From contig JAHYJR010000001.1 in the NCBI GenBank assembly GCA_019429005.1, positions 168,663 to 232,662 of the forward strand: a stretch of DNA of 64,000 nucleotides, read 5' to 3'. The position numbers and the translations under genes are program-made. The DNA comes from Nanobdellati archaeon (GTDB lineage Archaea; EX4484-52; GLR71). The notes under the pieces are model-generated. The model had not been told where the DNA came from. It saw nothing but the letters and a program-made list of their open reading frames with translations, and ran no database searches. Below, in pieces: positions 15,324 through 57,161 of the stretch; positions within the stretch are counted from its first letter, which is position 1, and every line of letters starts with the position of its first letter.

Positions 15324-16391
15324 ATGTCTATGACAAGAACAGATAATATCCTTGTTCTCTGTGTTGATAGGGATAATGATATCGGTAATAAGGCAAACAT
15401 AAAAGGCCCTATAATCGGAAGATCAAAAAATATTGATACAGCTGTAAAGCTTGCTTTAGCAGATCCGTCAGAATCTGATGTCAATGCCATATTTCATGCA
15501 GTAAAATCGTATGATCAACTCAAAAAAGATCTTGGTTCTACCGTTAATGTTGATATTGTAACAGTCACCGGTGGATATCCTGTTGGTATTATTTCTGATA
15601 AAATTATTGAAAAACAGCTTGATGAATTAACAAAAAAAATAAAATATAACAAAGTTGTTTTTGTTTCTGATGGTCAGGCTGATGAGCATATAATGCCAAT
15701 TATTAAACATAAATTAGGCACATTTAATATTTATACAGAACGTGTTATAATAAAACAAAATAGGTATCTTGAAGGTGCTTATTATATAATTTATGATTTT
15801 ATTTCAGCCGTTGCATCAAATAAGGATCTTTCAAAGATATTTTTTGGTATACCTGCAATAATGCTTATACTTTATGCAATTTTTGGATTTGCAGGTGGCC
15901 GTTTAATACTTGGTGTTGTTGGTATTTATTTACTTGTACGAGGTTTCCATCTAGATCCGTATGTTATGGGATTTATAAGTGAATTTAGTAATTCTGCAAA
16001 ACTTAGGAAAGCTAGTTTTTTTGTATATATTGCATCAATAACATTTCTTATTATGGGTGTTATAGAAGGGTATTCATCTTCAAGAGGCATTATTGCAGAA
16101 GATATGCTTTTAGCAATTTCACTTTTCTTACACGCCTCAATATTCTTATTATTTTTTAGTGCTATATTATTAGGTATTGGTGTCCTTTTACGAGATATTA
16201 AAGCTAAGACTAATTATTTAAAATATTTATCTTATTTTGTTTTAATTTTTGCAATAAGTTGGATAATCTATGCTTTGACGTCATATGTAATTAATGCGTT
16301 CACTGGTATTGGCAATGTACTTTATACACTGCTTATAAGTGGCGGTTTGACTTTTATTGTATTGTCTTTAGAGCGAACTGAGGAAGATTAA
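15324..16391 (+). CDS. DUF373 family membrane protein
   Basis: LVLCVDRDNDIG...DPSESDVNAIF, VSDGQADE, C-terminal TM helices. Confidence 0.85.
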   Translation: MSMTRTDNILVLCVDRDNDIGNKANIKGPIIGRSKNIDTAVKLALADPSESDVNAIFHAVKSYDQLKKDLGSTVNVDIVTVTGGYPVGIISDKIIEKQLDELTKKIKYNKVVFVSDGQADEHIMPIIKHKLGTFNIYTERVIIKQNRYLEGAYYIIYDFISAVASNKDLSKIFFGIPAIMLILYAIFGFAGGRLILGVVGIYLLVRGFHLDPYVMGFISEFSNSAKLRKASFFVYIASITFLIMGVIEGYSSSRGIIAEDMLLAISLFLHASIFLLFFSAILLGIGVLLRDIKAKTNYLKYLSYFVLIFAISWIIYALTSYVINAFTGIGNVLYTLLISGGLTFIVLSLERTEED

Positions 16392-18740: not shown

Positions 18741-18831
18741 TTTTTCAGGTTAAATCATTTATTAACAACTCAAAAACAAATATATTAACCCTCGACATAC
18801 AATAGTTAATATATGTCTTTTTTAAATTGGG

Positions 18832-19911
18832 GTGTCAAGATTGCCGAATAATCATATGAATCATAATAAACGTTTAAAAAATAAAAATTCTTTAAATACA
18901 CCTATTTTAAAAACTGAAAAAACACATAAAACAGACATGCAGGAAGAATTAAAACAGATGACTTCAGAATATGAAAATCTGGGACTTTCAAACAAACAAG
19001 TGTCTATCAAATCCGAAGAAGATATATTTATAAATTGTTTAGAGATAAGGTCAGTCACTCAATTGTTTTCAATTATTGGAATATATATAACTAAAAAATA
19101 TCCAAACCTGTTCAAAAATATTGATATTACCTTACAATCCTTAGACCAAGATACTTATTTTGAAGGTTATGTCGGAAAAATGTTAATATTACCTTTTATT
19201 TCATCTTTTATAGCTTTAATTTTTATTTTGTTTAATATTGTTTATGGTGTGTTTTATTTAGGATTTTTATCTTATGTATTATTACCCATAATTTTTATTA
19301 CGACTTTTTCATTTTTATATTATAATCCATTCAGGTTACGTGCAGCAAAAAGACTAAATATAAATTCAAATTTACCCTTTGCATTAAATCATCTTGCTGC
19401 AATTGCATCAAGTGGCGCACCGCCTGAAAAAGCATTTGAAATTTTATCAATATTTACCGAATTTGGTGCAATTTCTAAAGAATCGTCAAAAATTATTGAT
19501 AGAATACATTTTGGTGAAGATATAACAACTGCAATAAAACATGTTATGCGTATTACACCCTCTGAAAAATTTAAAGGCCTTCTTGCAGGGATACTGACTG
19601 TTATAGAAACTGGGGGGGATCTTGAGGAGTATCTTAAGCAGGCTGCAGAAACAGCTATGCATAATTATAAGTTAGCACAAAATCAATATACCGATTCCTT
19701 GTCAACGTATGCTGATATATATACAGCTATACTTATTGCAGCACCGCTTTTTATGGTATCTATACTAGCTGTCATGAATATTATACCAAGCACAAAACTT
19801 GTTGGTGGTATTTCGATACCCTTCGCACTAACAGTAGGTGTCTATATCGTGATGCCTGTTTTAAATATACTATTTATATTACTAATTGATATGATGCAAC
19901 CGGAGATTTGA
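18832..19911 (+). CDS. Type II secretion system F (TadC/ArlJ-like) platform protein
   Basis: NLPFALNHLAAIASSG, GEDITTA, TPSEKF, GGDLEEYL; TM helices. Confidence 0.88.
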   Translation: MSRLPNNHMNHNKRLKNKNSLNTPILKTEKTHKTDMQEELKQMTSEYENLGLSNKQVSIKSEEDIFINCLEIRSVTQLFSIIGIYITKKYPNLFKNIDITLQSLDQDTYFEGYVGKMLILPFISSFIALIFILFNIVYGVFYLGFLSYVLLPIIFITTFSFLYYNPFRLRAAKRLNINSNLPFALNHLAAIASSGAPPEKAFEILSIFTEFGAISKESSKIIDRIHFGEDITTAIKHVMRITPSEKFKGLLAGILTVIETGGDLEEYLKQAAETAMHNYKLAQNQYTDSLSTYADIYTAILIAAPLFMVSILAVMNIIPSTKLVGGISIPFALTVGVYIVMPVLNILFILLIDMMQPEI

Positions 19912-20783
19912 TTATGGGCAATTTTAACAATTTGTTCCGCTTTTATGAAGGAGAAGAAAAACAAGCAGTTATTCTTACCTTTGGTGTTGGTTTAATTATT
20001 TTTATTTTAAATCTATTTCTCTTTTATGGGAAAACTACTTTTGTGATTTATAATACTATCTTTGGTTTTGTTGCAGTTATTATTGCTCTAGGGCCCTTTG
20101 CTTATTTTCAATATAAGAGTTATAGGATTTCAAAAGAGATTGAATCAAATTTTTCATATTTTTTGATAGGTGTTTCAGAAGGTCTTGAAAGTAACATGTC
20201 TCTTCCAAATGCGTTAAAATACTCAGCTAAAAACGATTACGGTGTATTGGATCCTTATATAAATAAGATAATTTCGCAAATATCTTGGGGTGTGACCTTA
20301 GATAAGATTTTAATTGATTTTGCAGATCGTGTCAACAATCCAGTAATTAAACGTTCTGTTTCAACAATAATTGAAACGTATAATTCTGGAGGTAATCTTG
20401 CATCATCACTTTCAGCAGTTGCAAGTTATGTTACTGAAATTGAAAAAGTGCGTAATGAACGTTTGTCAAGACTTTCAAATAATATGCTTCAGAATTATGT
20501 GATTTATTTTGTATTTCTTGTAATCCTTGTGGGAATACAACAGATATTGCTTCCTATTTTCATGAAAAGTGGTTTTGGTGTAGTGTCATCAGCATCTTAT
20601 GGTATATCACTTTCACAGCTTTATTCAGTGCGGTTTAGAGATCTTGCAGTTATGCAGGGATTATTTTCAGGCCTTATAATTGGAAAATTATCATCGGGCA
20701 CACTTGCATCTGGTTTAAAACATTCAGCCATAATGGTATTTATTGGTTATGTTGTACTTACGATATCCTCCGCATTAATCTGA
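19908..20783 (+). CDS. Type II secretion system F (TadB/C-like) platform protein
   Basis: SQISWG, SGGNL, QGLFSGLIIGKL...GLKHS. Confidence 0.88.
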   Translation: MIMGNFNNLFRFYEGEEKQAVILTFGVGLIIFILNLFLFYGKTTFVIYNTIFGFVAVIIALGPFAYFQYKSYRISKEIESNFSYFLIGVSEGLESNMSLPNALKYSAKNDYGVLDPYINKIISQISWGVTLDKILIDFADRVNNPVIKRSVSTIIETYNSGGNLASSLSAVASYVTEIEKVRNERLSRLSNNMLQNYVIYFVFLVILVGIQQILLPIFMKSGFGVVSSASYGISLSQLYSVRFRDLAVMQGLFSGLIIGKLSSGTLASGLKHSAIMVFIGYVVLTISSALI

Positions 20784-20802
20784 TTATGAATATATTTATA
20801 GT

Positions 20803-21029
20803 GTCTCTGTTAAGTATATGTATTAAGTGTATCTGTGATACAGATAGCATAATATCAGACGTAGAAAGTCTCTGTTAAGTATATGTATTAAGTGTATCTG
20901 TGATACAGATAGCATAATATCAGACGTAGAAAGTCTCTGTTAAGTATATGTATTAAGTGTATCTGTGATACAGATAGCATAATATCAGACGTAGAAAGTC
21001 TCTGTTAAGTATATGTATTAAGTGTATCT
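20803..21029. repeat. Perfect 65-bp tandem repeat, 3.5 copies
   Basis: Unit starts at 20803, 20868, 20933, 20998; 32-nt GTCTCTGTTAAGTATATGTATTAAGTGTATCT x4 separated by an identical 33-nt segment x3. Confidence 0.97.
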
Positions 21030-21090
21030 CTAATCAATAATTCAATCAATTAAAAAGAGTAAAATACTAAAATCTCAAAAGGTTAATTTT

Positions 21091-21591
21091 ATGGTTTACA
21101 GACGTAAAGGTGCATCAACAATTGTCGCAACAGTTATTCTTGTTGTTTTTGTGATGGGTCTTTCTGCAATGGTGCTTACTTGGATACAGGAATCTACTAA
21201 AGAATCTATGTTGCAAGCAGATGACCAACGTGCAGACATTCTTGATTGTTCTGGTGGTAATGTTAAAATTGATTCTGTGTATATTTCTAATAATAGTGGT
21301 GTTTATAATTCAACAATTGTTGTTATAATTGATAATAATGGACGTGCACCATTTAAACTTGAAGAAGTGACTTTATGGAATACGACTGGTAGTTATTGTA
21401 CACTAGATACATCTCAAACGAGTTTATCTTCTGGTGACACCATTTCATTATTAAATAATTCTTGTTCTGTATTGGATGCTATCAATTGTTCTGGTTTCTA
21501 TAAAATTAAAGTCACGACAAATTGTGTTGGTGTTTCAAGCGAATTAACAAATTTAAATGATGTTATTTGTAATGGTGTTGTATTAGGGTAG
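21091..21591 (+). CDS. Archaeal type IV pilin
   Basis: Class III signal RRKG/ASTIVATVILV, hydrophobic helix, paired Cys. Confidence 0.85.
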   Translation: MVYRRKGASTIVATVILVVFVMGLSAMVLTWIQESTKESMLQADDQRADILDCSGGNVKIDSVYISNNSGVYNSTIVVIIDNNGRAPFKLEEVTLWNTTGSYCTLDTSQTSLSSGDTISLLNNSCSVLDAINCSGFYKIKVTTNCVGVSSELTNLNDVICNGVVLG

Positions 21592-21600
21592 TGGTTTTTT

Positions 21601-22086
21601 ATGGTCTGTTCAAGAAAAGCGATATCACCACTAATTGCATCTGTATTTTTAGTTGTATTTACTATAGGTCTTTCTGCTATGCTTGTTGATTGGATGAATA
21701 CTTATAATCGGGAATTGACTCAAGATGTGCAGATTTCAAGTAAAAGTGTTATGGATTGTATAAAAGTGAATCTCAATATAGATAAGATTTATCTTAATGT
21801 GAGTAACAATGGTAACGATTCTATAAAAGCACTTATCATGAATAATGGTCCTAGTGTCAATATTGTTTCAGCTTATGCTTATAGTGTAGATGGTTCAAGA
21901 TGTGTGCTTTCAAATCCAATAAAAACAATTAATCAGGGTATGTCACAGTTTTTAATAAATGATACTGGTTGTGATATTTACAATAATAATGTATCTTGTT
22001 CAGACTTTTATTTTGTAAAACTCATGACTGATTGCGGTGCAACAGCTGTATTCGAAGCACCAAGAACACCTGATTGTGTAAATTGA
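21601..22086 (+). CDS. Archaeal type IV pilin
   Basis: RKA/ISPLIASVFLV class III signal. Confidence 0.87.
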   Translation: MVCSRKAISPLIASVFLVVFTIGLSAMLVDWMNTYNRELTQDVQISSKSVMDCIKVNLNIDKIYLNVSNNGNDSIKALIMNNGPSVNIVSAYAYSVDGSRCVLSNPIKTINQGMSQFLINDTGCDIYNNNVSCSDFYFVKLMTDCGATAVFEAPRTPDCVN

Positions 22087-22258
22087 AATGCTTTGTATAA
22101 CACTGCTAAATAATATTTATTCAATTATGACCTTAACTAATGATTATAAAAATTAACTAACTATTATAAGTACCATTACCGAATAAACAGTAAATCATAT
22201 ATATCAAGCTCATACAAAATACTTAATACCTATTAGATATTTTTTTCAGGTTATCGTC

Positions 22259-22774
22259 GTGTCCCAGTTTCATAAATCATCAAGAAAAGGTCTTTCGCCA
22301 CTTGTAGCAGCAACACTCCTTATAGCTTTTACGTTATCTAGTGCAGCAATACTTACTGTGTGGGTTACAGATATTACAAATCAACAAAAAGCAGAATCAA
22401 CACGGTTTGAAGAAAAGATTGCATGTGCGGGATCAAATATCCAAGCAAATCTGGATTTTGCTAAATGGGATGCCGACAATACAACTTTTTCAATTTATAT
22501 TAGAAATAAAGGTGTTAATACTATTTTGATTGATGAATATTTAGTCTGGTATGAGTTCCGTTCAACCCCGGTTTATATTGATGCATCTGATCTGAAAATC
22601 GAAAAAGATAAGGCTATAATGTTAGACATTAATGTTTCAAAGGGTGTCTCTGATTTTGGTTATATAAATATTAGTGAAGCAGGAGAACCAATAAAAATTA
22701 AATATCTGACGACTTGTGATGGTGTTTTCTCTCAAGTTCAAAGACCCATGTTGGGTTGGAACACTGTTAGTTAA
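22259..22774 (+). CDS. Archaeal type IV pilin
   Basis: RKG/LSPLVAATLLIAF class III signal. Confidence 0.87.
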   Translation: MSQFHKSSRKGLSPLVAATLLIAFTLSSAAILTVWVTDITNQQKAESTRFEEKIACAGSNIQANLDFAKWDADNTTFSIYIRNKGVNTILIDEYLVWYEFRSTPVYIDASDLKIEKDKAIMLDINVSKGVSDFGYINISEAGEPIKIKYLTTCDGVFSQVQRPMLGWNTVS

Positions 22775-22817
22775 AACTTAATATGACTCAATTATTTATA
22801 TTCTTAAGACCTAAAGT

Positions 22818-23261
22818 ATGTTTATGTCTGGAATTCAAAAAAGGAAAGCCATATCTCCATTTATTGCGGCTGTATTTCTTATTGCAACAACTATATTTAT
22901 AGGTGGGTTTACGGCAACGTGGATTAAAGACTTTTCAAAAACACAAACAGAAACCGTTCTTAGTAACACAAATACGGAATGTAATTATGTATATCTTAAC
23001 CCTATAAATCCTAGTTTACTGAATGGTACCTTTTCACTTATAGTTCAAAATACTGGAACTGGTTCAACAACCTTAAGTGATATTCAGATAATCTATGATA
23101 ATAATACACAACTTCAAAAATCGTTATCCTCTATTGAATTACGAGGTTTAGAAATGGCACCAATATCAATTTATAACGTTAGCAGTAACATCTATATGAT
23201 AAATATAATATCTGATTGTAAAACTCTAAGTATTTATTCTTATGATATCTCGTTCATATGA
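22818..23261 (+). CDS. Archaeal type IV pilin
   Basis: RKA/ISPFIAAVFLIA class III signal. Confidence 0.87.
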   Translation: MFMSGIQKRKAISPFIAAVFLIATTIFIGGFTATWIKDFSKTQTETVLSNTNTECNYVYLNPINPSLLNGTFSLIVQNTGTGSTTLSDIQIIYDNNTQLQKSLSSIELRGLEMAPISIYNVSSNIYMINIISDCKTLSIYSYDISFI

Positions 23262-23326
23262 TATTTCCGTCATATGATTTTTAGTTTCTTATGTAATTAT
23301 TTAAGCAATATTGTATAACTATATTT

Positions 23327-23728
23327 ATGCAATCTTATCCGGTGCGTAGTCGTAAAGCTTTTGTAAAAATATTAGAAGTATCAATTGCATCTTTTATCTT
23401 ATTTATATTTATTGCTCTTTTTTCGGTTGTGGATGATATGGCCTATGATTTGATTGATCTTGAAATGACTGTGTACGAATCTTTTGAATACTTATACTTA
23501 TCTGGAACTCTCGGCCAATTCGCAGTATCTAGCAATCTTACAGGTTTTAACGACTCGTTTAGAGCTGTTGTATCTCCGATATATAACTTTGATGTTGGAC
23601 TAAAAAATAGCACAGCCTATATTGTACCACAATTACCAGATAAGTCAGATATCTATGTGTACCAATATCTTGTTTCAGGGTCCGATACAACATTTTCTCC
23701 GACTGTATTTAGTCTATATGTATGGTGA
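23327..23728 (+). CDS. Minor pilin-like protein
   Basis: RKA/FVKILEVSIA followed by hydrophobic helix. Confidence 0.65.
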   Translation: MQSYPVRSRKAFVKILEVSIASFILFIFIALFSVVDDMAYDLIDLEMTVYESFEYLYLSGTLGQFAVSSNLTGFNDSFRAVVSPIYNFDVGLKNSTAYIVPQLPDKSDIYVYQYLVSGSDTTFSPTVFSLYVW

Positions 23729-23732
23729 TGTT

Positions 23733-24314
23733 ATGGGTAAAAAGGGTCAATATTATATAGTTGGAGCAGCAATCCTAGTGTTTGTATTAGCATCTTTAAT
23801 AGCTTCAAAAGGTTATGACGCACAGTCTCTTGCAAGTGACACCAATCAATATGTTTTTGACAACCTATATATAGATCTAGCACACCTATCTAATGTGATT
23901 ATCGCTGAAAATAGAACAACGGAATCTATGGAACACTCTCTTGGGTCTTATTTTAATCTCACAAAAGATTTTGTAAAAAATAAGAATCTGTTTATTGAAG
24001 GTTATATGTTTGTAGGAGTTCCTTATGAAAATAGTTTAAATGTAACTATTGTTAATTTGTATAATGCTTCTTTTTCTGATATGAATTTGAATATTTCTTC
24101 AATATCTAGTTTAACAACAATTCCTGCAGAATCTATAAAAACAGTTTCATTTGTTGATGTATTTAATACAACATCAGAAATTGAAGTATCTTATCGTATT
24201 GTTGAACTTGATGAGGGTTTAAGTTTTAATGTAACACAAAAAACGTTTTCAGTATTCCGTTTGACACTTATTGGTCCTGGAACAAAGATAACTTCCCTTG
24301 AAAAACGTCTATAA
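23733..24314 (+). CDS. Minor pilin-like protein
   Basis: Likely start 23733 after GGTGA: MGKKG/QYYIVGAAILV class III signal. Confidence 0.7.
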   Translation: MGKKGQYYIVGAAILVFVLASLIASKGYDAQSLASDTNQYVFDNLYIDLAHLSNVIIAENRTTESMEHSLGSYFNLTKDFVKNKNLFIEGYMFVGVPYENSLNVTIVNLYNASFSDMNLNISSISSLTTIPAESIKTVSFVDVFNTTSEIEVSYRIVELDEGLSFNVTQKTFSVFRLTLIGPGTKITSLEKRL

Positions 24315-24363
24315 TCAGAGAGTTTATGTTAAAAATCTTAACTTTAATATATTGCCTTGAATA

Positions 24364-25521
24364 ATGTTATATATGCGAAAAGCAATATCACCTTTAATTT
24401 CTGGAGTGTTGTATACTGGAATATTAATAATGGCAATATCTTTTGTTTTATCTATGGTAGTTCCAGCTATTGATAATCTCGCAGATACTCTTAAAGTTGA
24501 TACTTCAAAAGACATGATGTACTCAATAGATCTTTATGTGAATAAGGTTGCGTCATCAGGTAAAGGCTCAAAAAGGACAATCCCTATTAGTTTTGAAATA
24601 GGAACCTTAAATGTTGATACTGAAAAAAACAGGATTTTATTTTTAGCCGATGTAGATACGAGGGATATTGCACCTAGAACCTCTTTATATCAAGGGAATG
24701 TTAAGATTAGTTCAAATGCAAACACAAATTTAAGTTATTTTAATAATTCCTATGTTCTTGAAAACGAGCATCTTAAGGTCACACTTTTTGGGAATGGCAC
24801 TATTTTACAACCTCAATATATAGATTTTAATAACATTATAGAATCAATCTATATGAAGGAAGTTGAAGAAAATCTAACAGGTATTGGATTAAATGTTGAT
24901 GGCCTTAATGATGCGTATTGTTGGTCTGAAGCTGTAACTGGAATAAATTTAGGTCGTGCTCGTGTAATCCAGCATTGTAATTCGTCAAATCTCTTATTTG
25001 ATGTATATATAGTTCTTGAATCTAGTGCAGATTATTTATCAGTCTCTATAAAAAATCCAAGCACAGAATATACTAATGTTTCATTGGTTATTGATTCTAC
25101 ACATATAAGTTCGTCTGTTTTAGATTCTGGAAAAATATTTATCACCTCTGAAAAATCAGATTATGTTATCGCACTTGTATCTGATTCTTATGCTGTTACT
25201 TCAAGCACTGCGTCCTCAATATCAATGACACAGGAATTTGATAGCAATGAGTTTTATGTTGTGTTCACTCAAGGTAGCAATCAAATAGTGCGGTCTAGAT
25301 TGGATTTAGTTGCATCTGGGAAATTTGATTTGTATTATGATCCTAGTTTTGCTTTTAAGATGTCTGATAAAAATCATATTGAATTTTCTTTAGATTATAC
25401 TAATGATAATATTAATCTTAGCGGAACTTCACTACTTCTTAGGCCTGGAAATTATATGTTATCTATTGAAAATAATGGTAGTTTGGGTAATTATATTACT
25501 ATTCTATTAAAAACGGTTTAG
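24364..25521 (+). CDS. Large pilin-like/adhesin protein
   Basis: RKA/ISPLISGVLY class III signal plus long beta-rich domain. Confidence 0.75.
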   Translation: MLYMRKAISPLISGVLYTGILIMAISFVLSMVVPAIDNLADTLKVDTSKDMMYSIDLYVNKVASSGKGSKRTIPISFEIGTLNVDTEKNRILFLADVDTRDIAPRTSLYQGNVKISSNANTNLSYFNNSYVLENEHLKVTLFGNGTILQPQYIDFNNIIESIYMKEVEENLTGIGLNVDGLNDAYCWSEAVTGINLGRARVIQHCNSSNLLFDVYIVLESSADYLSVSIKNPSTEYTNVSLVIDSTHISSSVLDSGKIFITSEKSDYVIALVSDSYAVTSSTASSISMTQEFDSNEFYVVFTQGSNQIVRSRLDLVASGKFDLYYDPSFAFKMSDKNHIEFSLDYTNDNINLSGTSLLLRPGNYMLSIENNGSLGNYITILLKTV

Positions 25522-25528
25522 TGATTTT

Positions 25529-26638
25529 ATGGGACGATACGGTACTACATCAATTGATAATGTGATTAGTTTTGTGCTTTTCTTGGGTATTGTAACAATT
25601 ATAATGTTTTATGCAGTTGAGTTATCCGATTCAAATCATATTGGTCTTTCAGATGATTACGTTTCTCTATGGGGTCGTTATATGGAACCACAAGATTCTT
25701 TTAATCTGTATATTGTACCTGTGTATGTAACATCAATTAAAACAATAGCTAATTACGCCATAAATATTACTAGTAATTATAATACTGATTTTAATCCAGA
25801 TTCAATAACTGTTTTTGATTCAAATTGGGTTGAAGTGCCAAGCATTTATAATACGTCTTTATTTTTTTCAAGTAATTTAACGAGTGGTAATAACCTATTT
25901 TATATTGGTTATTCAACTGATTTTAGATTCACTGAACTATCAATGTTGACAGATATAACTTTTTCCGAAAGTTGGATTAACAATTCTAAAATCAGTCTTA
26001 ATTTTACTCAAAGTGGTATGTCTAGTATGATTTTTAATGGTAGCGAATTTTTAACAACTGGCATTTATTTTGACAATACTTCTTCATTTTATATGGAAAA
26101 TCTTTCAGTATTACATTCTGTATTTTTTGAAAATTTGACTGTACGTATGTATCCTAACACGTCAAGAATATTTGTAGAAACGAACATCCCTAAAACAATT
26201 ATTTTTAATATAACGGATGTGTTCGACAGGTTTTATAATGGTTCAGTGAATCAATTTAATGAATCATTATATGAATTATTTACTTTCAATACAGGGTTCC
26301 TTGATATGTATTCGACAACAAATTCAAACGGAATTGCTTTAATGGGGGATAATATGTCTATAATTATAGAAAATCATATATCTCCTGCACAAAAGACTAT
26401 TTATTTATCAGGAGTATCTTTTTTTGAAGTCTATTTACACAATTCAGATTATCTGCAAGCACTTGACGAACTTGATATATTTTTCACACCGCCAACTATT
26501 ATGCTTGGTTCTACTGAACTATTAAAAGATATAACGAACAATTTATTCATAGATTATAGATATAATGATACTAACAATAATACTCTTTTTGGTATACCTA
26601 AGATTGATTCATTTATGGCACGAATAGATCTTGAGTAA
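25529..26638 (+). CDS. Large minor pilin-like protein
   Basis: RYG/TTSIDNVISFVLF atypical class III-like N-term; many N-glycosylation sequons. Confidence 0.55.
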   Translation: MGRYGTTSIDNVISFVLFLGIVTIIMFYAVELSDSNHIGLSDDYVSLWGRYMEPQDSFNLYIVPVYVTSIKTIANYAINITSNYNTDFNPDSITVFDSNWVEVPSIYNTSLFFSSNLTSGNNLFYIGYSTDFRFTELSMLTDITFSESWINNSKISLNFTQSGMSSMIFNGSEFLTTGIYFDNTSSFYMENLSVLHSVFFENLTVRMYPNTSRIFVETNIPKTIIFNITDVFDRFYNGSVNQFNESLYELFTFNTGFLDMYSTTNSNGIALMGDNMSIIIENHISPAQKTIYLSGVSFFEVYLHNSDYLQALDELDIFFTPPTIMLGSTELLKDITNNLFIDYRYNDTNNNTLFGIPKIDSFMARIDLE

Positions 26639-30769: not shown

Positions 30770-31942
30770 TTAGAAATTTAAACAGTTAAATTCTGTTTTC
30801 AAATCTTTTATTTTTTGATTTAATACTGTGTCTGTTATGTCTTGACTGTACTTGATTATTTCCGTAATCTTTTTATTGAATTCTTTAATAATCTGGGTTA
30901 TTGGATGTTCTGCATATGTTTCTGTTTTGGTTGTTTTTGGTTCTAAATATGTGGGTTTTTGTGTTTCTTGTTCTTCTTCATCTTCGTTTGTATTTTTGAT
31001 TGTATATAGTTCTTCGTCATCGATTCGGTTAGTACCTATTCTATGTGCATTTTGTGTATTTGATGTTTTTGGGTCCTTATAGTGTATTTTTGGATGTGTG
31101 TCTGTTGTTGTAGTATTTATGTCTGTTATATATTCTGTATTTATATTTGTTTCTGGATTTTTAATCGCATTATATAGGTCTTCAGCATAAGTGTTTGTAA
31201 ATTTATTTTTATATTTTGTAATTGTAGTTTTAAAATCTTTTACAGATCTGATTGTGTCATTAAAACGTTTTCGTCCAAGGTTTATATTACCCTCTCCGAT
31301 TATATCATATAGGCTTTTTACAACCGTTTCATATTTTTCATAAAGTGTATTTGTTATGTTGTGTTTATTGTTTGCTTTTTGCACTATTGTTGCATCACCT
31401 TCTGCAATAAGTTTATTGAATTTTTTATCTATGTATGGGAGTATGTCTGCTTGTTGAGCATGTACTAATTCGTGTGTTTTTACAGAGTCTTTATATTTTG
31501 TATCTGTTATTGAGGGGTCTAAGTATATTGAGATATGATCTGGTTTTATTTCAGTACCATTTAGTTTATATTTAATCTCTGTAAGACCTACTGTATTTGA
31601 TGGCAATCTTGCAATTGTGTAATCTAATTCTGTAACGTCATATTTATGTTCTTTTGGTGTGTGTTTTAATGTTTTTAGGTATCTTTCAGCTAAGTCAAAT
31701 ATATTATAATCTGGTTTGTTTGTTGTTGTATATTGTTTTAATATCTCTGTATTGTATTCGGGTTGTGTGTCTGTAATATATTTAGGTTGTATGTCTGTGA
31801 TGTATTTTGGTTTTGTGTCTATTAAATATGGTGCTTGTTTGTTTGATATACCTAAATCTATTGTGTGTGTATCTGTTTTGTATTGTATTTGGGGAGCTAC
31901 TATATATGCTGATTTCAAATCACTTAAATACATAAATAACAC
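30770..31942 (-). CDS. Hypothetical protein with zincin HExxH motif
   Basis: THELVHAQQ then IAEGDAT; Thr/Lys/Asn-rich, degenerate 8-aa repeats near N-term. Confidence 0.55.
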   Translation of the reverse strand: MLFMYLSDLKSAYIVAPQIQYKTDTHTIDLGISNKQAPYLIDTKPKYITDIQPKYITDTQPEYNTEILKQYTTTNKPDYNIFDLAERYLKTLKHTPKEHKYDVTELDYTIARLPSNTVGLTEIKYKLNGTEIKPDHISIYLDPSITDTKYKDSVKTHELVHAQQADILPYIDKKFNKLIAEGDATIVQKANNKHNITNTLYEKYETVVKSLYDIIGEGNINLGRKRFNDTIRSVKDFKTTITKYKNKFTNTYAEDLYNAIKNPETNINTEYITDINTTTTDTHPKIHYKDPKTSNTQNAHRIGTNRIDDEELYTIKNTNEDEEEQETQKPTYLEPKTTKTETYAEHPITQIIKEFNKKITEIIKYSQDITDTVLNQKIKDLKTEFNCLNF

Positions 31943-32181
31943 CTGATTTTTGTTAAAGTTAAAATTAGTTATATATATTTCATATTTATTTAATTTTATA
32001 AATATTTGTTAAATATTTGTGCTAACTCTCACAAAAATATGCTAGTTTTTAGGGTATTTTTTAACAGATTAGCACGCTTGCTAACGTTTTATATCTAATA
32101 CTGTATTTTTATTATTTTTTTGTCTGTTTTTTTATTTGTGTGAGACCAAACCTTTATTTAAACTGCGTTCTAAGATTATGT

Positions 32182-33192
32182 ATGGTATTTAAGCATCTTG
32201 TCTTTTGGATTTCAGGAATTTTTGGAACTTCAAGGCCTGTGGTATACAAGGATGAGCTTGATGCTATTGTTGAAACTGTTGTGGGTGGGTTTTCAAAGAT
32301 TAATTTACGTATTTCTCAAAGTGATAATGAACTTAGTCTTTTGAGACAATCTGTGCTTCAGACACAACAAATACCAATTAGTGTGAATCTTCCTCAATTA
32401 GATAGCCTTATTATGGGTTATTCTACGATTTCAGAACGTGTTCATGTTGTTGAGTCTAATAAAGATGTTATTAGTAATAAATTATTTATTTTAGAATCGA
32501 CGCTCTCGTCTCGTATTGATTCTATTGTGTCTCAAAAACTAGAATCTATGGGCTCTAGTACCATTTCCGGTTCTTTAACAACACCTCAAATACTTGAATC
32601 TTTGCGTGCTCTAGAATCTTCTGTAAATCATATTAAATCTGAGTTAGTTACACGTTCAACTGTTGAATCTAACAACGTTACAACACCTAACAACAACGTT
32701 ACAACAGCAAATAACAATGTTACAACACCTAACAACAACGTTACAACACCTAATAACAACGTTACAACACCTAATAACAATGTTACAACACCTAATAAGA
32801 ACGTTACAACAGCAAATATGTCGTTTGATGATGATTTGACTGCACAAGACGATGTTTATGGGGGTTCCGTTGACTTTGGTCAGGGTGTACAAAACGTGTC
32901 TGGGCCAAAAGCTTTTGGTTTTAAACCTACTCGTACGGTTGTCACTTCGCGTAATATGAATAAAGTACTTGTTTCATCCTTAATACCTGTTTTTAATGAG
33001 CTTTTAAATGCTGAGAAATTTTTATCTTACTCTGAATTGTCTAAACGTCTAAATAAAAAAGAAGCAACGGCAAGAGCTTATGTTAATGCTTTGAAAACTT
33101 ATGGTGTTTCTATTGATGAACAGACTGTTTCTAACGGGCGTAAGCTTGTAAGGCTTGCAAAGGATGTTGTGCGTAAATATCTTATTCCTTAA
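32182..33192 (+). CDS. Coiled-coil + (VTTPNNN)7 repeat + C-terminal winged-helix protein; candidate initiator/origin-binding protein
   Basis: C-term LSYSELSKRLNKKEATARAYVNALKTYGVSIDEQ...RKLVRL is wHTH-like; ATG 32182 preferred to GTG 32140. Confidence 0.7.
   Translation: MVFKHLVFWISGIFGTSRPVVYKDELDAIVETVVGGFSKINLRISQSDNELSLLRQSVLQTQQIPISVNLPQLDSLIMGYSTISERVHVVESNKDVISNKLFILESTLSSRIDSIVSQKLESMGSSTISGSLTTPQILESLRALESSVNHIKSELVTRSTVESNNVTTPNNNVTTANNNVTTPNNNVTTPNNNVTTPNNNVTTPNKNVTTANMSFDDDLTAQDDVYGGSVDFGQGVQNVSGPKAFGFKPTRTVVTSRNMNKVLVSSLIPVFNELLNAEKFLSYSELSKRLNKKEATARAYVNALKTYGVSIDEQTVSNGRKLVRLAKDVVRKYLIP
32671..32817 (+). repeat. Intragenic 21-bp tandem repeat x7 with invariant GTTACAACA core
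   Basis: GTTACAACA at 32677, 32698, 32719, 32740, 32761, 32782, 32803. Confidence 0.97.
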
Positions 33193-35054
33193 GATGTAAT
33201 TCTTTATAGTTCCTGCTGTTATAACAGCAGGTTGTTATTCAATAACATTGTTATAACATTGTTATAACACTATTTAATCAATATCTATAGTCTTATTTAA
33301 TTATCTATACTGTTATAACACAGAATAACATTGTTATAACAGCTATAGAGACTACTGTTTTATATATCTTTCAACGTGTTTTTCATTAGTTAGGGGTTTA
33401 TTAGTCACTGAAGCTTCATTGAACTTTTTTTTGAATTCACTGAAACTTCACTGCACTATAAAACTAAAATATGTTTTTTGTGTGTGGGTGTTTTTATCGT
33501 TTTATAATCTTTTTGTTTTGCGTTTCCCTCTATTTCTATTGTTTTTTTCTGTTTTTTTGATCTGTTAGAATCTTTGGGTTTGTGTATGTGTGTGTGTGTA
33601 TGTGTTTGGATTTTGTTATTTGTGTTATTTTGGGTGGTGTCTATTAGTCTATGTTCTGTTATAATTTTCTACAAAAATAACCACTTTTTGTGAGGGTTAA
33701 ACTTTTGTTTATTTATGTTGTTTGAATTTAGCTTTCTTATGGTCTTTATTGGCTCTTTTAGGTCTCCGTTTGTCTCGATTGTGGCATTTATTTTGTTTAA
33801 CTCTATATTATTTAGTATTTCTTTGTCTTTTGCCCCCCCCCTTTAGTATTCTCATTTGATTTCGTTTATTTTTCATTTAGATTTCAGGATCTTTTGTTTT
33901 CATTTTTTTTTGTCTATTTTTTTCAATTACTATCAATTTTCAGAATATTTGTTTTTATCTCTATTTTTGGCTTTTTTTTGTTATAACTCTCACATTTATA
34001 TCTTATTTTATCCTAATTTGGGTTTATTTCCTGTTTTTATCTAATTTAAGCCTTTATCTGTAATCTAAATCTATCTCTATTGTTGTATTTTCGTTGTGTT
34101 TAAGTCTTTTTAGAAAAAAATAGTTACTTTTGTTCCTTAGTTATCCTTTAGTCTGACACATCTTAACGTTTATCATGTATATCTTAGCGTTTAGTACTTT
34201 GTTTTTGTATTCCTGGTATCTGTCTCTTATTGTTCTGCGTTTCTATTATATCTCTTGAATTCTGCTCTATATAGTACGTATTTTTTAATCGTATTATATT
34301 GCTATATTTACTGTATTTACTCTATATTGCTAGTGGTTTTTATGCTCTTTTTATTGTTTATTTTTGTATCCTTATTTAATCTTGCTAGCACACTCTTTGG
34401 GGGTATATTTGTTTAACACAGATTTTTTATTTTACTATTTTTTTATTTTGCAGACTTTATTCACACATTTCACATTTTATTTAAATAGCTTCTGAATCTC
34501 TTTCAAATTAGACCTTAACTCTCACATTTAGTGGCTCATTTTATTTGTCTTTCTTTTTGAATTTGGGGTTTTTAAGTGTTTATTGTGCTGTTTTAACGCA
34601 CTTTATACTATTTAGATTTTATTGTATTCTGCTGGTTTTTTAAAATGCTTTATATCTTTATAACACACCCGTTTTTAGGTTTTTTCCTTTCAAATGTGTA
34701 TATGCCTACTGTTAAGCTCTATTTCTGTTAAATTAGATCTTGTCCTATTATATTTAGATTGTCTTATAGTTTCATAGTTTTGATATATCTTTTAAATACT
34801 ACATATTATAAAACTCAATTTATACCAATAGACAAGCATATCTTTATATTGCTATATCACTAAATAAATGGTTGTTTTATTGTCTATTGTGCTTAATAAT
34901 ACAGCTTATTTGGAGACAATAGCCCAAAATATGCAATCTTAGGCAAGAACTTAGTTATTTTGGCCTTTTCACGGCACAAAAATTCACAATTTTTTCATAT
35001 TAGGTTTCTTTTAACTCTCTCTTTTTTTATTTTTTAAAATTCAGAACTTAGGCA
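33193..35054. other. ~1.9-kb non-coding, T-rich skewed region; candidate replication origin/terminus or partition locus
   Basis: No credible ORF; several motif families; flanked by convergent wHTH genes. Confidence 0.5.
33212..33341. repeat. Cluster of palindromic TGTTATAACA boxes
   Basis: Perfect copies at 33217, 33249, 33260, 33311, 33332; the first lies within 20-bp palindrome CCTGCTGTTATAACAGCAGG (33212-33231). Confidence 0.92.
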
Positions 35055-35462
35055 CTAGGGTGTATCAGATTCTGTATTATAGTTATATTTCTTTGCGCTA
35101 AACGCTTTTACTGCAAGCACTATGCTTTCAAAGAAACGTTCACATCTGTTTGATAGTTTATAATAATCACGTTCTTTTGTTTCTATTAGACCTATGCCAA
35201 TAAGTTTGTTTATCATGCTGTAATATGTTGTTTTGGATATATTGTGTTCCTTACAATATATATCCCAATTGGACCTATCAAAAACACCATTATTACCTTT
35301 TTGTCTTAGTTCTTTTAGGAATGTATAGGCATGATCTGGCAGCATTACATTTTTTGAACCTCTATATAACAGGCTCATAAGGCTTTCAAAATCAGGGGTT
35401 TCAAGCGGTTTTACAGATATTGTCGTGTGGTATCTTCTAGGTTTTTTTGTATCCATAATCAA
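35055..35462 (-). CDS. Winged-helix protein, hypothetical
   Basis: YCKEHNISKTTYYSMINKLIGIGLIETKERDYYKLS wHTH pattern. Confidence 0.7.
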   Translation of the reverse strand: MIMDTKKPRRYHTTISVKPLETPDFESLMSLLYRGSKNVMLPDHAYTFLKELRQKGNNGVFDRSNWDIYCKEHNISKTTYYSMINKLIGIGLIETKERDYYKLSNRCERFFESIVLAVKAFSAKKYNYNTESDTP

Positions 35463-35791
35463 TCACATTGATTTTTTGTTTTTTCTTGTTTTTATGTATT
35501 CCTATATTATGTAGAATGGATTGGTTTTATTTTTGTCTAGAAAAAATACACCATTCTGATATGTATCTGAATACACAACACTCGTACAAAACCCCCTTGA
35601 TTACTAGCCTAAACATGGCAAAAATAGCGAAGCTAGTATGTTTAGTTTAGTTATATTAGAATAATGTAGTGTTACTAAGGTATATACAAATAAAAGTATA
35701 ATGATATAGTAAGATATTTTATATCTTATATATTAGACTATCTAAATACATATATATCTATATTACAATGTATATACTGTACAATGTATAA

Positions 35792-35960
35792 GTTAGGCAC
35801 CAATATTGTTTTTGTTAGGCACTAAAAAGTAGGGTTGTTAGGCACTATTTTTGTTTTTTTAGGTTATAAAATTCATTTAGATAATACGTATTTTTGTATG
35901 CTATCTGTAATTTAATGTGTATTGTTTATGTATGTTTGAATAATATGTAGTTAGGCACTA
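35792..35960. repeat. Direct repeats GTTAGGCAC(TA)
   Basis: Copies at 35792, 35814, 35837, 35950; also TTAGGCACTA at 35048 and GTTAGGCACTA at 42834. Confidence 0.85.
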
Positions 35961-36041
35961 GACAGGTTCTTATTTAGCCCTTTTAATCAAAATTTAAGAA
36001 AAAACAGACTTTTTAGGCTAAAAATAAACAAAAAAACGATA

Positions 36042-36326
36042 TCACTTAAGCTTTTTCATCACTTTTTCAAAATCTTTAGCATATTCAGAACCTTTTTCAG
36101 TCAGTTTTATGTATTTTATACGACCTACTTTTTCAAAAGAAACAATACCTTTTTTCATGAAAAGCTCAAGTATCTTTACTGTATGTGAATATGTGCAATC
36201 TGTTATTTTTGCAAGTGTTGATGCATATACACTTTCATTCTTAATACGTAATGCTAATAGTATTTGAACGGGTTTTGCGTGTAAAAAGAGATCACATAAT
36301 TCTTCATTTTCTTTAACCATATTCAA
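36042..36326 (-). CDS. Small winged-helix (MarR/ArsR-like) protein
   Basis: YASTLAKITDCTYSHTVKILELFMKKGIVSFEKVGRIKYIKLTEKG. Confidence 0.85.
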   Translation of the reverse strand: MNMVKENEELCDLFLHAKPVQILLALRIKNESVYASTLAKITDCTYSHTVKILELFMKKGIVSFEKVGRIKYIKLTEKGSEYAKDFEKVMKKLK

Positions 36327-38209: not shown

Positions 38210-38282
38210 TAGTCCCGCCAGGATTCGAACCTGGGTCTAGAGATCCAGAGTCTCTTATGCTTGGCCTCTACATTACGGGACT
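38210..38282 (-). tRNA. tRNA-Gln (anticodon CUG), intronless, CCA not encoded
   Basis: AGTCCCG...AGAGA-CT(CTG)GA-TCTCT...GGTTCGAATCC...CGGGACT-A cloverleaf; A1-U72 pair. Confidence 0.95.
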
Positions 38283-42776: not shown

Positions 42777-42867
42777 AAGATAACACCAATTCAATATTTA
42801 GATTTCGGTATTAAGTTATTTAACTTTATCTAAGTTAGGCACTAATAAATTTTTAAGGTTTATCAAA

Positions 42868-56211: not shown

Positions 56212-56387
56212 AGAAAAATATTGTATTGTTTAGTATATATATTTTATTATAGTTTATCTAAAAGAATTCATCAGGTGCGGTTTAATCTTATATACTTTTA
56301 ATGTTAAATAATTTACATCAGTATTAGTTAAATATTTAAATCATAAGCGTACATTAATTTTATATTAATAAATCGGTGTTTTATTTT

Positions 56388-57161
56388 ATGGGTCGTGTAA
56401 TCTGTCTTGTATCGGGTAAAGGTGGTGTTGGAAAAACTACACTTGCGTCCAATATAGCTATGGCATTAAATAATTTTGGAAAAAATACAGTTGTCATTGA
56501 TACAAACCTTACAACACCAAATTTAGGTTTTCATCTTGGTGTACCACTTTATCCTAAAACCTTTCATGATGTTTTGAATGGTACAGCTACTTATGAAGAA
56601 GCAACTTATACACATCCTTCAGGTCTTAGAGTTATGCCTGCTGGAATATCTTTAAGAGATCTTAAAAATACAAATTTATCACAGATGGATAACGTTGTTC
56701 TCGATATTGCAGATAACCATGACATTGTAATTCTTGACGGTGCTGCAGGTCTTGGAAAAGAAGGTAAGGCGAGTTTAAGTGCAGCAGATGAAGCTCTTAT
56801 TGTAACAAATCCACAGCTTCCATCAGTTACAGATGCTCTTAAGACAATAAAAATCGCAGAAGAGCTTGGTACAAAAATACTTGGTGTGGCTTTAAATCGT
56901 TCAAAAAATCATCCTTCCGAATTATCACAAAATGAAGTTGAAGCACTTTTAGGTTATCCGGTTATTTCAATTATACCTGATGAGAATCATATTATAGACA
57001 GTCTTGCAGCAAAGACGCCTATTGTGGCATTCAAACCAAACACACGTTCAGCTCAAGAGATAAAGAAACTCGCTGCATGTTTAATCGGTATTGATTATGA
57101 CATCCCTGTTCAGAAAGAATATGGATTGTTTTCTAGAATTTTTGGTTTTCTTAAAGGTTAA
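56388..57161 (+). CDS. minD: Archaeal MinD/ParA-family ATPase
   Basis: SGKGGVGKTT, PNLGFHLG, DGAAGLG, SVTDALK. Confidence 0.9.
   Translation: MGRVICLVSGKGGVGKTTLASNIAMALNNFGKNTVVIDTNLTTPNLGFHLGVPLYPKTFHDVLNGTATYEEATYTHPSGLRVMPAGISLRDLKNTNLSQMDNVVLDIADNHDIVILDGAAGLGKEGKASLSAADEALIVTNPQLPSVTDALKTIKIAEELGTKILGVALNRSKNHPSELSQNEVEALLGYPVISIIPDENHIIDSLAAKTPIVAFKPNTRSAQEIKKLAACLIGIDYDIPVQKEYGLFSRIFGFLKG

Follow-up and report, generated by a model that had tools for sequence, protein, structure and literature searches.

What does a region of nearly 1.9 kb do when it carries no gene in a gene-dense archaeal genome and is strongly biased between its two strands? An earlier note, made from the letters of the DNA, had taken it for a chromosome-maintenance locus, either an origin or a terminus. 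We addressed the question in a 64 kb stretch of DNA (the window), in which the region (the gap) occupies positions 33193-35054, and in four related loci (L001-L004) from a scan of genome contigs. The four loci amount to about three independent lineages, L002 and L003 being close relatives.

Composition of the gap and its counterparts in relatives

The gap measures 1862 bp and is the longest intergenic region of the window; the runner-up has 579 bp. On the plus strand its base fractions are A 0.234, C 0.138, G 0.129 and T 0.499, compared with A 0.316 and T 0.379 window-wide. The enrichment in AT content is small (73% vs. 69.5%), and A-tracts make up a fraction of 0.30, compared with 0.28 for the remaining intergenic DNA and 0.23 overall. 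The AT skew of the gap is -0.36. Of the 11 other long intergenic regions, ten have values from -0.10 to +0.07; the sole exception (-0.26) is a 239-bp spacer that immediately precedes this module. Runs of at least five T number 31 on the plus strand of the gap vs. 3 on the minus strand (read as at least five A). The gap and the features peculiar to its sequence are as follows.

33193..35054, no strand: non-coding T-rich domain, the finding itself (composition, ORF, Pfam and cross-locus comparison)
33405..33457, plus strand: direct repeat TCACTGAAGCTTCATTGAACT / TCACTGAAACTTCACTGCACT, preceded by GGGG and specific to the window
33581..33605, plus strand: TG dinucleotide run, period 2, 12.5 copies
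33833..33841, plus strand: C9 tract (sequence)
34711..34910, no strand: stretch between box copies b and c, AT-rich and unskewed, with the lowest duplex stability in the gap

The length of the gap, its T-richness and skew on the plus strand and the TG run had all been described in the earlier note, and each was borne out. The C tract was also there, although it has nine C rather than the eight given before (33834-33841).

The stop codons number 26, 28 and 40 in the plus-strand frames and 56, 69 and 51 in the minus-strand frames, and the composition of the gap predicts about 35 and about 56, respectively, per 620 codons. In none of the six frames does the count depart from chance. The longest open stretch has 79 codons, and none of the 11 stop-to-stop ORFs of the gap matched a Pfam family (best E 0.021). 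The region is non-coding, as had been claimed.

An equivalent gap of 861-1296 bp, free of ORFs, follows the homologue of the upstream gene in all four related loci. These gaps have a T fraction of 0.51-0.53, an AT skew of -0.38 to -0.44 and 16-30 runs of at least five T vs. 0-1 runs of at least five A; over all five loci the ranges are 0.50-0.53, -0.36 to -0.44 and 16-31 vs. 0-3. The relatives' loci are flanked by genes for ribosomal proteins, RNase HII, a tRNA methyltransferase and UppS, and L004 is syntenic with the window (gatE ... HTH_45 ... ATP-cone ... alaS). The synteny check that the earlier note proposed was, in this respect, positive.

Beyond the gap, each of the four relatives has xerA and a canonical dif site of the 11-6-11 type. 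Their XerA proteins score 266-279 bits with the NCBIfam equivalog NF040815 (cutoff 220). Each locus has one dif of the form GTGTCGCATAA-N6-TTATGCGAC. In L001-L003 it lies about 68 bp upstream of xerA; in L004 it overlaps the annotated xerA start. The window yielded neither element. A tblastn search with the four XerA proteins gave a best E of 3.2 within the 64 kb, and the relatives' dif consensus had no match with up to three mismatches in the 64 kb (best 15 of 22 positions). No 11-6-11 inverted repeat matching at 8 or more of 11 positions occurs within 31943-36041. In place of xerA-dif there is a window-specific ORF, which has no homologue in L001-L004.

35055..35462, minus strand: 135-aa ORF with a weak TrmB-type wHTH match (E 0.0055)

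Because the 64-kb window lacks both dif and xerA, the proposed link between the gap and dimer resolution comes from the relatives alone.

We considered whether the gap consists of decayed genes or neutral spacer, its T excess being the fading composition of former minus-strand genes such as a lost xerA. The skew of the gap is near that of minus-strand genes read on the plus strand (-0.18 to -0.22 in the window and -0.34 to -0.36 in the relatives), and the window's gap is both without xerA and 0.6-1.0 kb longer than those of the relatives. However, the stop counts, the Pfam result and the tblastn search with XerA all speak against decay. Moreover, the relatives that still have xerA show an equally ORF-free and equally skewed gap, and exact 14-nt boxes and iterons (see below) are kept between loci whose upstream proteins are only 28-35% identical. 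We rejected the decayed-gene reading as largely refuted and regard it as extremely unlikely.

The upstream gene and the motif classes of the module

The gap directly follows the gene of a putative DNA-binding protein, and so does its equivalent in the relatives, making five of five loci.

32182..33192, plus strand: gene of a protein with a coiled coil, an NNVTT linker and a C-terminal winged helix (homology and AlphaFold model)

The ORF opens at GTG 32140, and the conserved Met at 32182 gives a product of 336 aa. AlphaFold gives the wHTH (residues 270-350) a pLDDT of 88-96 and models long helices and a disordered linker (173-262). The N-terminal peptide MVF..AGIF is conserved. The family comprises 16 homologues, all from DPANN or unnamed archaea, and HTH_24 was detected in 9 of 15 members. 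Among 1.84 billion representatives, only 13 clusters (50% identity) were found at E<=1e-30. Given that the family is this tiny, the module would be a clade-specific solution. None of the similarity searches named a function: the structure search returned generic MarR/ArsR/Fur winged helices only (best E 1.6e-3), the PDB sequence search returned coiled coils and Lrp-type HTH, and the ESM Atlas returned DPANN HTH proteins with scores below 0.9.

The first motif class is a palindromic iteron, TGTTRYAACA, found just 3' of the stop codon of the winged-helix gene, with further copies inside the gene, at all five loci. The cluster lies 14-141 nt 3' of the stop codon in every case. In the window it appears as follows.

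32670..32818, plus strand: tandem repeat inside the gene, 7.1 copies of a 21-bp unit, which encodes the NNVTT repeats
33212..33343, no strand: five exact TGTTATAACA palindromes (33217, 33249, 33260, 33311 and 33332)
33212..33231: hairpin CCTGCTGTTATAACAGCAGG, which holds the first TGTTATAACA palindrome

Each 21-bp unit contains GTTACAAC, which matches the iteron consensus GTTRYAAC, and the relatives have one or two intragenic copies each. The window holds 21 GTTRYAAC copies, with 5.05 +/- 2.42 expected and none of 100 shuffles reaching 21, and 13 of the 21 fall in 32677-33987. The iteron-like boxes that the earlier note had noticed are therefore real and non-random. The counts for gene, gap and elsewhere are 7/6/8 in the window and 1/6/2, 2/4/2, 2/7/2 and 1/5/1 in the relatives, where "elsewhere" covers 6.8-61 kb; the consensus is concentrated in the winged-helix gene and the gap at all five loci. 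With up to one mismatch allowed, the 10-mer occurs at 3.2-9.1 per kb in the gaps vs. 0.56-1.02 per kb outside. The iterons are often paired, 11 bp apart.

In sopC/parS-type partition sites, the gene of a DNA-binding protein is followed by its own repeat array. The gap might likewise be a plasmid-type centromere with a multimer-resolution module, fixed in the chromosome, in which the winged-helix protein would be the centromere binder, the iterons the centromere and xerA-dif the resolution system. The gene precedes its presumed array directly (by position, binding being putative), the resolution system adjoins in four of four relatives, and the N-terminal peptide and coiled coil might mediate contact with a partner or with the membrane. 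Nevertheless, no locus has an adjacent NTPase of the ParA, ParM or TubZ type, and the nearest such gene in the window is 23 kb away.

56376..57161: nearest ParA/MinD-like gene in the window

The winged-helix protein and the gap DNA had no match in 72,556 plasmid or 50,697 phage records, among which DPANN elements are few. The flanks are housekeeping genes, their synteny is kept between distant lineages, and we found no sign of an integrated mobile element in these flanks or records. We regard the centromere reading as unlikely.

The second motif class is an oriented box, TAACTCTCACA, whose copies surround an AT-rich core, probably an easily melted one, at all five loci. The 8-mer ACTCTCAC has 13 copies in the 114,582 bp of the window and the four loci together; all 13 lie in intergenic regions of the module, and 12 of them are on the plus strand. 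The copies in the window are listed below.

32025..32035, plus strand: additional TAACTCTCACA box, 157 bp before the start of the winged-helix gene
33979..33998, plus strand: iteron fused to a TAACTCTCACATTT box, copy a, TGTTATAACTCTCACATTT
34516..34529, plus strand: TAACTCTCACATTT box, copy b
35012..35025, plus strand: degenerate box, copy c, TAACTCTCTCTTTT, 2 mismatches

In the four relatives, the stop codon of xerA has a TAACTCTCACA box at a distance of 0-13 nt, and copy c of the window occupies the position of that box. In L001-L003, TATA-like CTATAT-N2-4-CTATAT boxes stand ahead of the boxes. We also considered TAACTCTCACA as dif and rejected it: the motif is asymmetric and present in 2-4 copies, and the real dif of the relatives is located elsewhere.

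Archaeal RNA polymerase stops at oligo-T. The one-sided T runs of all five loci, the terminator-like hairpin just 3' of the winged-helix stop codon, the box near the xerA stop codon and the TATA-like boxes would all suit a transcription element. It could be a one-way termination zone on the plus strand, a long A-rich 3' UTR or antisense RNA from the xerA side, or a set of small RNA genes, whose promoters or ends would be the conserved boxes. The covariance-model check that the earlier note called for found no known RNA in the gap. At gathering thresholds, Rfam reported tRNA-Gln only for the whole window and nothing for the gap; a permissive scan of 31900-36100 gave four sub-threshold matches (E<=5), which we took for chance. 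RNAalifold on the plus strand of the best conserved block of about 200 nt gave -4.74 kcal/mol and one small hairpin, which is not a persuasive fold. In addition, a terminator needs far less than one or two kb, and the palindromic iterons and the dedicated DNA-binding protein would be left unexplained. A scan for sigma-70 promoters and terminators was discarded; its counts were at shuffle level and the method is unsuited to archaea. We do not think a transcription element likely as the account of the gap, and it is compatible with the explanation that we prefer below.

The third motif class is TTAGGCACYA.

35048..35958, plus strand: five TTAGGCACYA copies (35048, 35793, 35815, 35838 and 35951) flanking the 135-aa ORF

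These copies correspond to the array beyond xerA-dif in the relatives, and TTAGGCAC arrays occur beyond xerA-dif or the 135-aa ORF at all five loci. In L001-L003, opposed arrays flank xerA-dif; the window and L004 lack the left one. The TTAGGCACYA copies share 7-8 of 11 positions with a dif arm, a weak likeness that places TTAGGCACYAT in the top 0.25-0.9% of 11-mers. The motif TTAGGCAC contains GTTAGGC, a sequence known from attC-type cores. The idea of an integron was dropped: the relatives' recombinases pass the XerA cutoff, and with the integron integrase model TIGR02249 they score 161-175 bits vs. a cutoff of 265.

Origin, terminus and strand skew

Archaeal origins typically have ORB or mini-ORB repeats around a duplex unwinding element beside orc1/cdc6, with WhiP acting at oriC3. 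Plasmid Rep proteins, lambda O and WhiP at Sulfolobus oriC3 are the initiator parallels for a winged-helix protein, and ori-lambda sits inside gene O. The gap could therefore be read as an iteron-type origin, independent of Orc1/Cdc6 or assisted by Orc, with the winged-helix protein as initiator or accessory and the AT-rich core between the TAACTCTCACA boxes as the unwinding element. The iterons, often paired one helical turn apart, adjoin the gene of their presumed binding protein, and the copies in its linker region recall the lambda arrangement. The least stable 100- and 200-bp windows of the whole locus lie between box copies, at the positional equivalent of the core, in four of four relatives. 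In the window, the segment 34711-34910 is within the top 1.3% of least stable 200-bp windows.

Other observations weigh against an origin. The window's least stable DNA falls outside the gap. No Cdc6/Orc AAA+ or Cdc6_C domain was found in the 61 ORFs of the window, as the earlier note had stated for orc1/cdc6, or in the 45 ORFs of L001-L004, and no whiP-like initiator was found at any of the five loci. The winged-helix protein has no ATPase, primase or helicase domain. The genes on both sides point toward the gap, in agreement with the converging transcription reported before, and do not diverge from it. In a weak test, the ORB-type patterns TCCAnTGGA and TCCAn(1-2)GGAAA occurred in none of the gaps. 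An ORB-like reading of the window's TCACTGAA repeats was dropped, TTCAnTGAA being absent from all four relatives. In the relatives, the locus is also joined directly to dif, and in archaea examined to date dif sits apart from the origins.

The skew tests, which cover 30 kb on either side of the gap, gave no support to either replication reading. By regression, the orientation of a gene affects its GC skew (0.090 +/- 0.013), whereas the side of the gap on which it lies does not (-0.004 +/- 0.013), and the orientation-corrected side effect on AT skew is -0.017 +/- 0.012. The plus-strand T excess is equal on both sides, and in L001 and L004 the plus strand is G-rich on both sides. The ASPS-type 4-mers (GTTG/GTTC/TGGT) have biases that track gene orientation, with no flip at the gap. 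The G/T bias that the earlier note saw building across gatE is instead an effect of gene orientation and protein composition.

A replication origin is unlikely on this evidence, and we give the iteron-type version slightly less credence than a centromere or a transcription element. A terminus is not demonstrated either: neither skew nor 4-mers have an inflection at the gap, and the window has neither dif nor xerA. Work on Sulfolobus (PMC3020120) indicates that archaeal dif need not coincide with fork-fusion zones. The earlier note had named three outcomes that would count against chromosome maintenance. One of them, the absence of a skew inflection, was observed; the other two were not, as the gap is present in relatives and no decayed gene was found. 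Chromosome maintenance is supported indirectly by the gap in four of four relatives, its housekeeping context and its junction with xerA and dif.

A candidate chromosome-organising element near dif

Our best reading takes the gap for the window's version of a cis-acting domain, conserved, non-coding and strand-polar, that belongs to a small DPANN clade. In the window, the winged-helix gene and each of the three motif classes are intact, yet xerA-dif is missing. We tentatively propose, with slightly less than even confidence, that the domain is bound by protein and, as an element of the dif neighbourhood, organises the chromosome. The roles that we give the motifs are putative and follow from their positions. 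Dimers of the winged-helix protein, joined via the coiled coil, would occupy the palindromic iterons, and other factors would occupy the two oriented motifs, TAACTCTCACA and TTAGGCACYA, the latter perhaps bound by XerA. On stiff, T-tract-rich DNA these proteins might build up into a large nucleoprotein complex that marks and organises the part of the chromosome where dimers are resolved. SMC-type complexes could meet a roadblock or domain boundary there, or the complex could tether the region at division.

The closest parallel is "boundary 1" of Thermococcus kodakarensis (Yamaura et al. 2025, PMC11840125). There, dif lies in an AT-rich, A-tract-rich intergenic region of ~1.9 kb between convergent genes, which is necessary and sufficient for an SMC boundary and requires the wHTH protein TrmBL2 but not XerA/dif. 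Our gap is likewise a very large intergenic region (1.86 kb) between convergent genes, slightly enriched in A/T tracts and, in the relatives only, associated with dif. The independence from XerA/dif fits a window that keeps the region without both. A winged-helix DNA-binding protein is required there; here one is encoded alongside, its binding being predicted. The differences are also clear. In T. kodakarensis dif is inside the region, whereas here it is beyond xerA, and TrmBL2 is a genome-wide nucleoid protein, whereas here a dedicated coiled-coil wHTH gene adjoins putative palindromic sites. The AT contrast is large there (>75% vs. 48%) and small here. The strand-polar T excess, TAACTCTCACA and TTAGGCACYA are not described for boundary 1. 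Among the window's genes we saw neither SMC nor ScpA/B, nor a clear TrmBL2.

XerS/difSL, XerH/difH and archaeal xerA-dif modules resemble the four relatives in having a recombinase gene beside an 11-6-11 site with a TAA-N6-TTA core (PMC5357621 and PMC2958812), and the haloarchaeal dif adjoins a xerA operon according to PMC11840125. Unlike these modules, the gap itself has no dif and the window has neither dif nor xerA, and the modules are not known to come with a motif-laden domain of 1-2 kb and a partner DNA-binding protein. Archaeal oriC shares with the locus the repeats around an AT-rich core, which at the locus probably melts easily, beside a winged-helix protein gene; the locus differs in its lack of orc1/cdc6, of the ORB-type dyads looked for and of a skew inflection, in its converging transcription and in the dif that adjoins it in the relatives.

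Bacterial terminus systems include the Tus-Ter and RTP-Ter fork traps and MatP-matS. With these the locus shares oriented short sites in opposed groups around dif (TTAGGCACYA, in L001-L003) and a small winged-helix or coiled-coil DNA-binding protein encoded beside its sites, which are putative here. It shows no sequence homology to Tus, RTP or MatP and no skew switch, and the left TTAGGCACYA array is absent in the window and L004. The XerD unloading sites (XDS), as cited in PMC11840125, are a further parallel, in that the TTAGGCACYA copies resemble a dif half-site.

The boundary reading gives no reason for the T excess being on one strand, and this conserved excess is a lead in its own right. 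By analogy with the bacterial systems, the parts could form a polar roadblock to replication forks or SMC-type translocases, confining events to the dif neighbourhood. It would be built from the oriented, dif-half-site-like TTAGGCACYA, the T-tract DNA and TAACTCTCACA boxes of one strand, and the winged-helix protein. We consider this very unlikely. If true, no barrier system that is direction-sensitive and organises the terminus would have been seen in archaea before, and this one would match Tus-Ter, RTP-Ter or XDS in function while being made from unrelated parts.

If the boundary or tether reading that we prefer is true, the Thermococcus principle, in which the DNA surrounding dif rather than Xer/dif does the organising, would extend to a distant archaeal group, and different lineages would have recruited different proteins for organising the dif region. 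Almost nothing is known of how the small chromosomes of DPANN archaea are replicated, resolved and segregated. The locus offers a testable handle on these processes: one uncharacterised DNA-binding protein, three short motifs kept exact across lineages with proteins of only about 30% identity, and a physical link to xerA-dif.

A gene-free, T-rich gap behind a winged-helix protein gene

The gap at 33193–35054 spans 1862 bp and is the longest intergenic region in the window, followed by one of 579 bp. As the earlier note had described, it is T-rich on the + strand (A 0.234, C 0.138, G 0.129, T 0.499), the genes on either side point toward it, and it contains a TG run at 33581–33605. The C tract was also present, as C9 at 33833–33841 rather than the C8 first reported. 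Runs of T≥5 numbered 31, versus 3 runs of A≥5. The gap has no coding signal. A decayed gene was rejected, as stop codons per frame (26/28/40 on the + strand, 56/69/51 on the − strand) were close to the counts expected from composition (~35 and ~56, respectively, per 620 codons) and none of the 11 gap ORFs had a Pfam match; the longest open stretch was 79 codons. A known RNA was likewise rejected, there being no match to any.

The gene preceding the gap was as follows.

Winged-helix protein gene
32182 (conserved start) to 33192, + strand, 336 aa

The family is small: a set of 5.8 billion contained 16 of its proteins, and of 1.84 billion representatives of clusters at 50% identity, 13 reached E≤1e-30. 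All members are built alike, with the N-terminal peptide MVF..AGIF followed by long helices and by a low-complexity linker carrying NNVTT repeats; the winged helix at the C-terminus is well conserved, and 9 of 15 members match HTH_24 there. With a mean pLDDT of 62.4, the AlphaFold model places helices at residues 3–179, disorder at 173–262, and a confident wHTH at 270–350 (pLDDT 88–96). Foldseek hits were confined to generic winged helices of the MarR/ArsR/Fur type (best E 1.6e-3). The nearest relatives are DPANN MAG proteins, which, together with archaeal GatD/GatE, archaeal AlaRS and a family B polymerase in the window, identifies the source as a DPANN-type archaeon. The window also holds a type IV pilus/archaellum-like cluster (16890–26638), in which a T2SSE ATPase and two T2SSF membrane proteins are followed by eight ORFs with no Pfam match, possibly pilins or accessory proteins.

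A scan of 185,579 species genomes yielded four loci with a homologue of the winged-helix gene.

Related loci
L001, labelled Nanobdellati
L002 (JAIVYO010000031.1), labelled Campylobacterales, clearly archaeal
L003, labelled 'archaeon'
L004, labelled Nanohaloarchaea

Since L002 and L003 are closely related, the four represent about three independent lineages. L002 carries archaeal ribosomal proteins L10/P1, an archaeal XerA and the DPANN module, is near-collinear with L003, and was probably misbinned in a Campylobacterales MAG. All four loci are chromosomal. Their flanks include ribosomal proteins L11/L1/L10/P1, RNase HII, a tRNA methyltransferase and UppS, and the L004 order, gatE – module – HTH_45 protein – ATP-cone protein – alaS, is identical in the window. 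This syntenic block also contains tRNA-Gln(CTG) (38210–38282, −), placed between the ATP-cone gene and small ORFs; neither an integrase nor an att duplication was seen beside it. The earlier note had proposed looking for an equivalent gap in relatives, and an ORF-free gap of 861–1296 bp directly follows the homologue in all four, with T at 0.51–0.53, AT skew of -0.38 to -0.44, and 16–30 runs of T≥5 versus 0–1 of A≥5.

Three classes of motif

The first class is palindromic. The window contains 21 copies of GTTRYAAC where 5.05 ± 2.42 would be expected, and 0 of 100 shuffles reached 21, which bears out the iteron-like boxes noticed at first. Copies in gene, gap and elsewhere were 7/6/8 in the window and 1/6/2, 2/4/2, 2/7/2 and 1/5/1 in the relatives. 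The first TGTTRYAACA cluster lies 14–141 nt past the stop codon in all five loci, and copies are frequently paired, 11 bp apart. Inside the window's winged-helix gene, the seven copies form a 21-bp tandem repeat encoding NNVTT. This DNA (32670–32818) fits the iteron consensus (GTTACAAC), and each relative's gene has 1–2 sites. The linker peptide of the relatives varies as V-[T/I/A/V]-T, exactly the range permitted by GTT-RY-AAC; therefore, the repeat may be conserved as DNA, providing putative binding sites inside the gene, and not as peptide. Within the gap, the iteron portion evolves through tandem duplication of 60–210-bp units: two of ~210 bp in L001 (10990–11400) and four of about 60–120 bp in L003 (2080–2400), each with a TGTTGYAACA/TGTTTTAACA pair.

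The second class is an oriented box, TAACTCTCACA(TTT). The 8-mer ACTCTCAC occurred 13 times in 114,582 bp, always within module intergenic regions and 12 times on the + strand; box matches with 3 mismatches were at chance level (15 vs 16.7 expected).

Box copies in the window
32025, upstream of the winged-helix gene
33984, exact
34516, exact
35012, degenerate

In the relatives, the last copy lies 0–13 nt from the xerA stop codon, and the last two enclose, in 4/4, the 100- and 200-bp segments with the lowest stability anywhere in the locus. The equivalent position here, 34711–34910, is only in the top ~1% for low stability.

The third class, TTAGGCACYA, forms arrays of 2–5 copies beyond xerA-dif in the relatives and of 5 copies in one orientation in the window (35048, 35793, 35815, 35838, 35951). 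L001–L003 have a further 4–5 copies, oppositely oriented, upstream of the winged-helix gene. The array consensus TTAGGCACYAT agrees with dif arms at 7–8 of 11 positions (top 0.25–0.9% of 11-mers), a likeness we regard as a weak lead. A lone copy of GTTAGGCACTA at 42835–42845, about 40 nt upstream of the alaS start, has the gene-relative orientation of the arrays upstream of xerA; another lies at 15714.

xerA-dif, strand skew and replication

The gene after the gap in all four relatives encodes a tyrosine recombinase of 280–304 aa that exceeds the NCBIfam XerA equivalog cutoff (266–279 bits vs 220); an integron integrase was rejected (161–175 bits vs 265). Every relative carries a single canonical 11-6-11 site, GTGTCGCATAA-N6-TTATGCGAC(A/G)(T/C), which in L001–L003 lies some 68 bp upstream of xerA and in L004 overlaps the annotated xerA start. 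In the 64-kb window, tblastn with the four XerA proteins did not find xerA (best E 3.2), and the dif pattern had no match at ≤3 mismatches (best 15/22). A 135-aa ORF without homologues in L001–L004 occupies the xerA-dif position (35055–36041 region). It has a weak TrmB-type wHTH match and lies between the TTAGGCACYA copy at 35048 and the other four; the 579-bp spacer past it contains the window's second least stable DNA (35633–35776). According to reviews, xerA-dif forms a single module in some archaea (PMC5357621); in Thermococcales, dif is not adjacent to xerA (PMC2958812).

Across 61 genes, a gene-level regression showed that GC skew followed gene orientation (0.090 ± 0.013) and did not depend on the side of the gap (-0.004 ± 0.013). 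The AT-skew intercept was -0.10 across 1–64000, the + strand being T-rich irrespective of gene orientation, and its offset did not change across the gap (-0.017 ± 0.012), as if the entire window lay on one replichore. Coding-strand AT skew was near 0 for plus-strand genes and about +0.2 for minus-strand genes. The polar 4-mers GTTG, GTTC and TGGT, used as markers around archaeal dif, also tracked gene orientation, with no flip in the window. Because skew and 4-mers track orientation and are unchanged at the gap, the bias once thought to build across gatE does not signal replication. The gap nonetheless stands out, with an AT skew of -0.36 where other intergenic regions range from -0.10 to +0.07, except the 239-bp spacer immediately upstream of the module (-0.26). 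Between gatE and the module, ORF 30770–31942 (−; 390 aa, low-complexity, Thr/Lys/Asn/Asp-rich, with internal repeats) has the same AT skew of -0.36 and is missing from the syntenic L004 locus.

A replication origin stands as a rival reading, since the iterons surround a meltable core, and the earlier note had supposed one from the boxes. However, an origin is unlikely because the loci carry no initiator gene (Orc1/Cdc6 domain in 0/61 scanned ORFs of the window, in line with the first reading), transcription converges on the gap, a skew inflection is absent, and dif adjoins in the relatives. Linkage to dif does not make the gap a terminus either, nor does the missing skew switch contradict that linkage, since Sulfolobus dif lies outside fork-fusion zones (PMC3020120).

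A putative protein-binding domain

The gap is a conserved non-coding domain, putatively protein-binding; we infer all motif-to-protein assignments from position. Our literature search found no description of this module and nothing treating DPANN together with XerA. The closest published case is the Thermococcus kodakarensis dif region (PMC11840125). There, dif sits within an intergenic region of ~1.9 kb that is rich in AT and in A-tracts and has convergent genes on its two sides. The region is both required for an SMC-dependent domain boundary and enough by itself to form one; the boundary requires the winged-helix nucleoid protein TrmBL2 and is independent of XerA and dif. The window retains the domain, the protein and all motifs without xerA-dif (within 64 kb), which fits this independence. 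The ancestor of the window may have lost xerA-dif and kept the domain with its protein and motifs.
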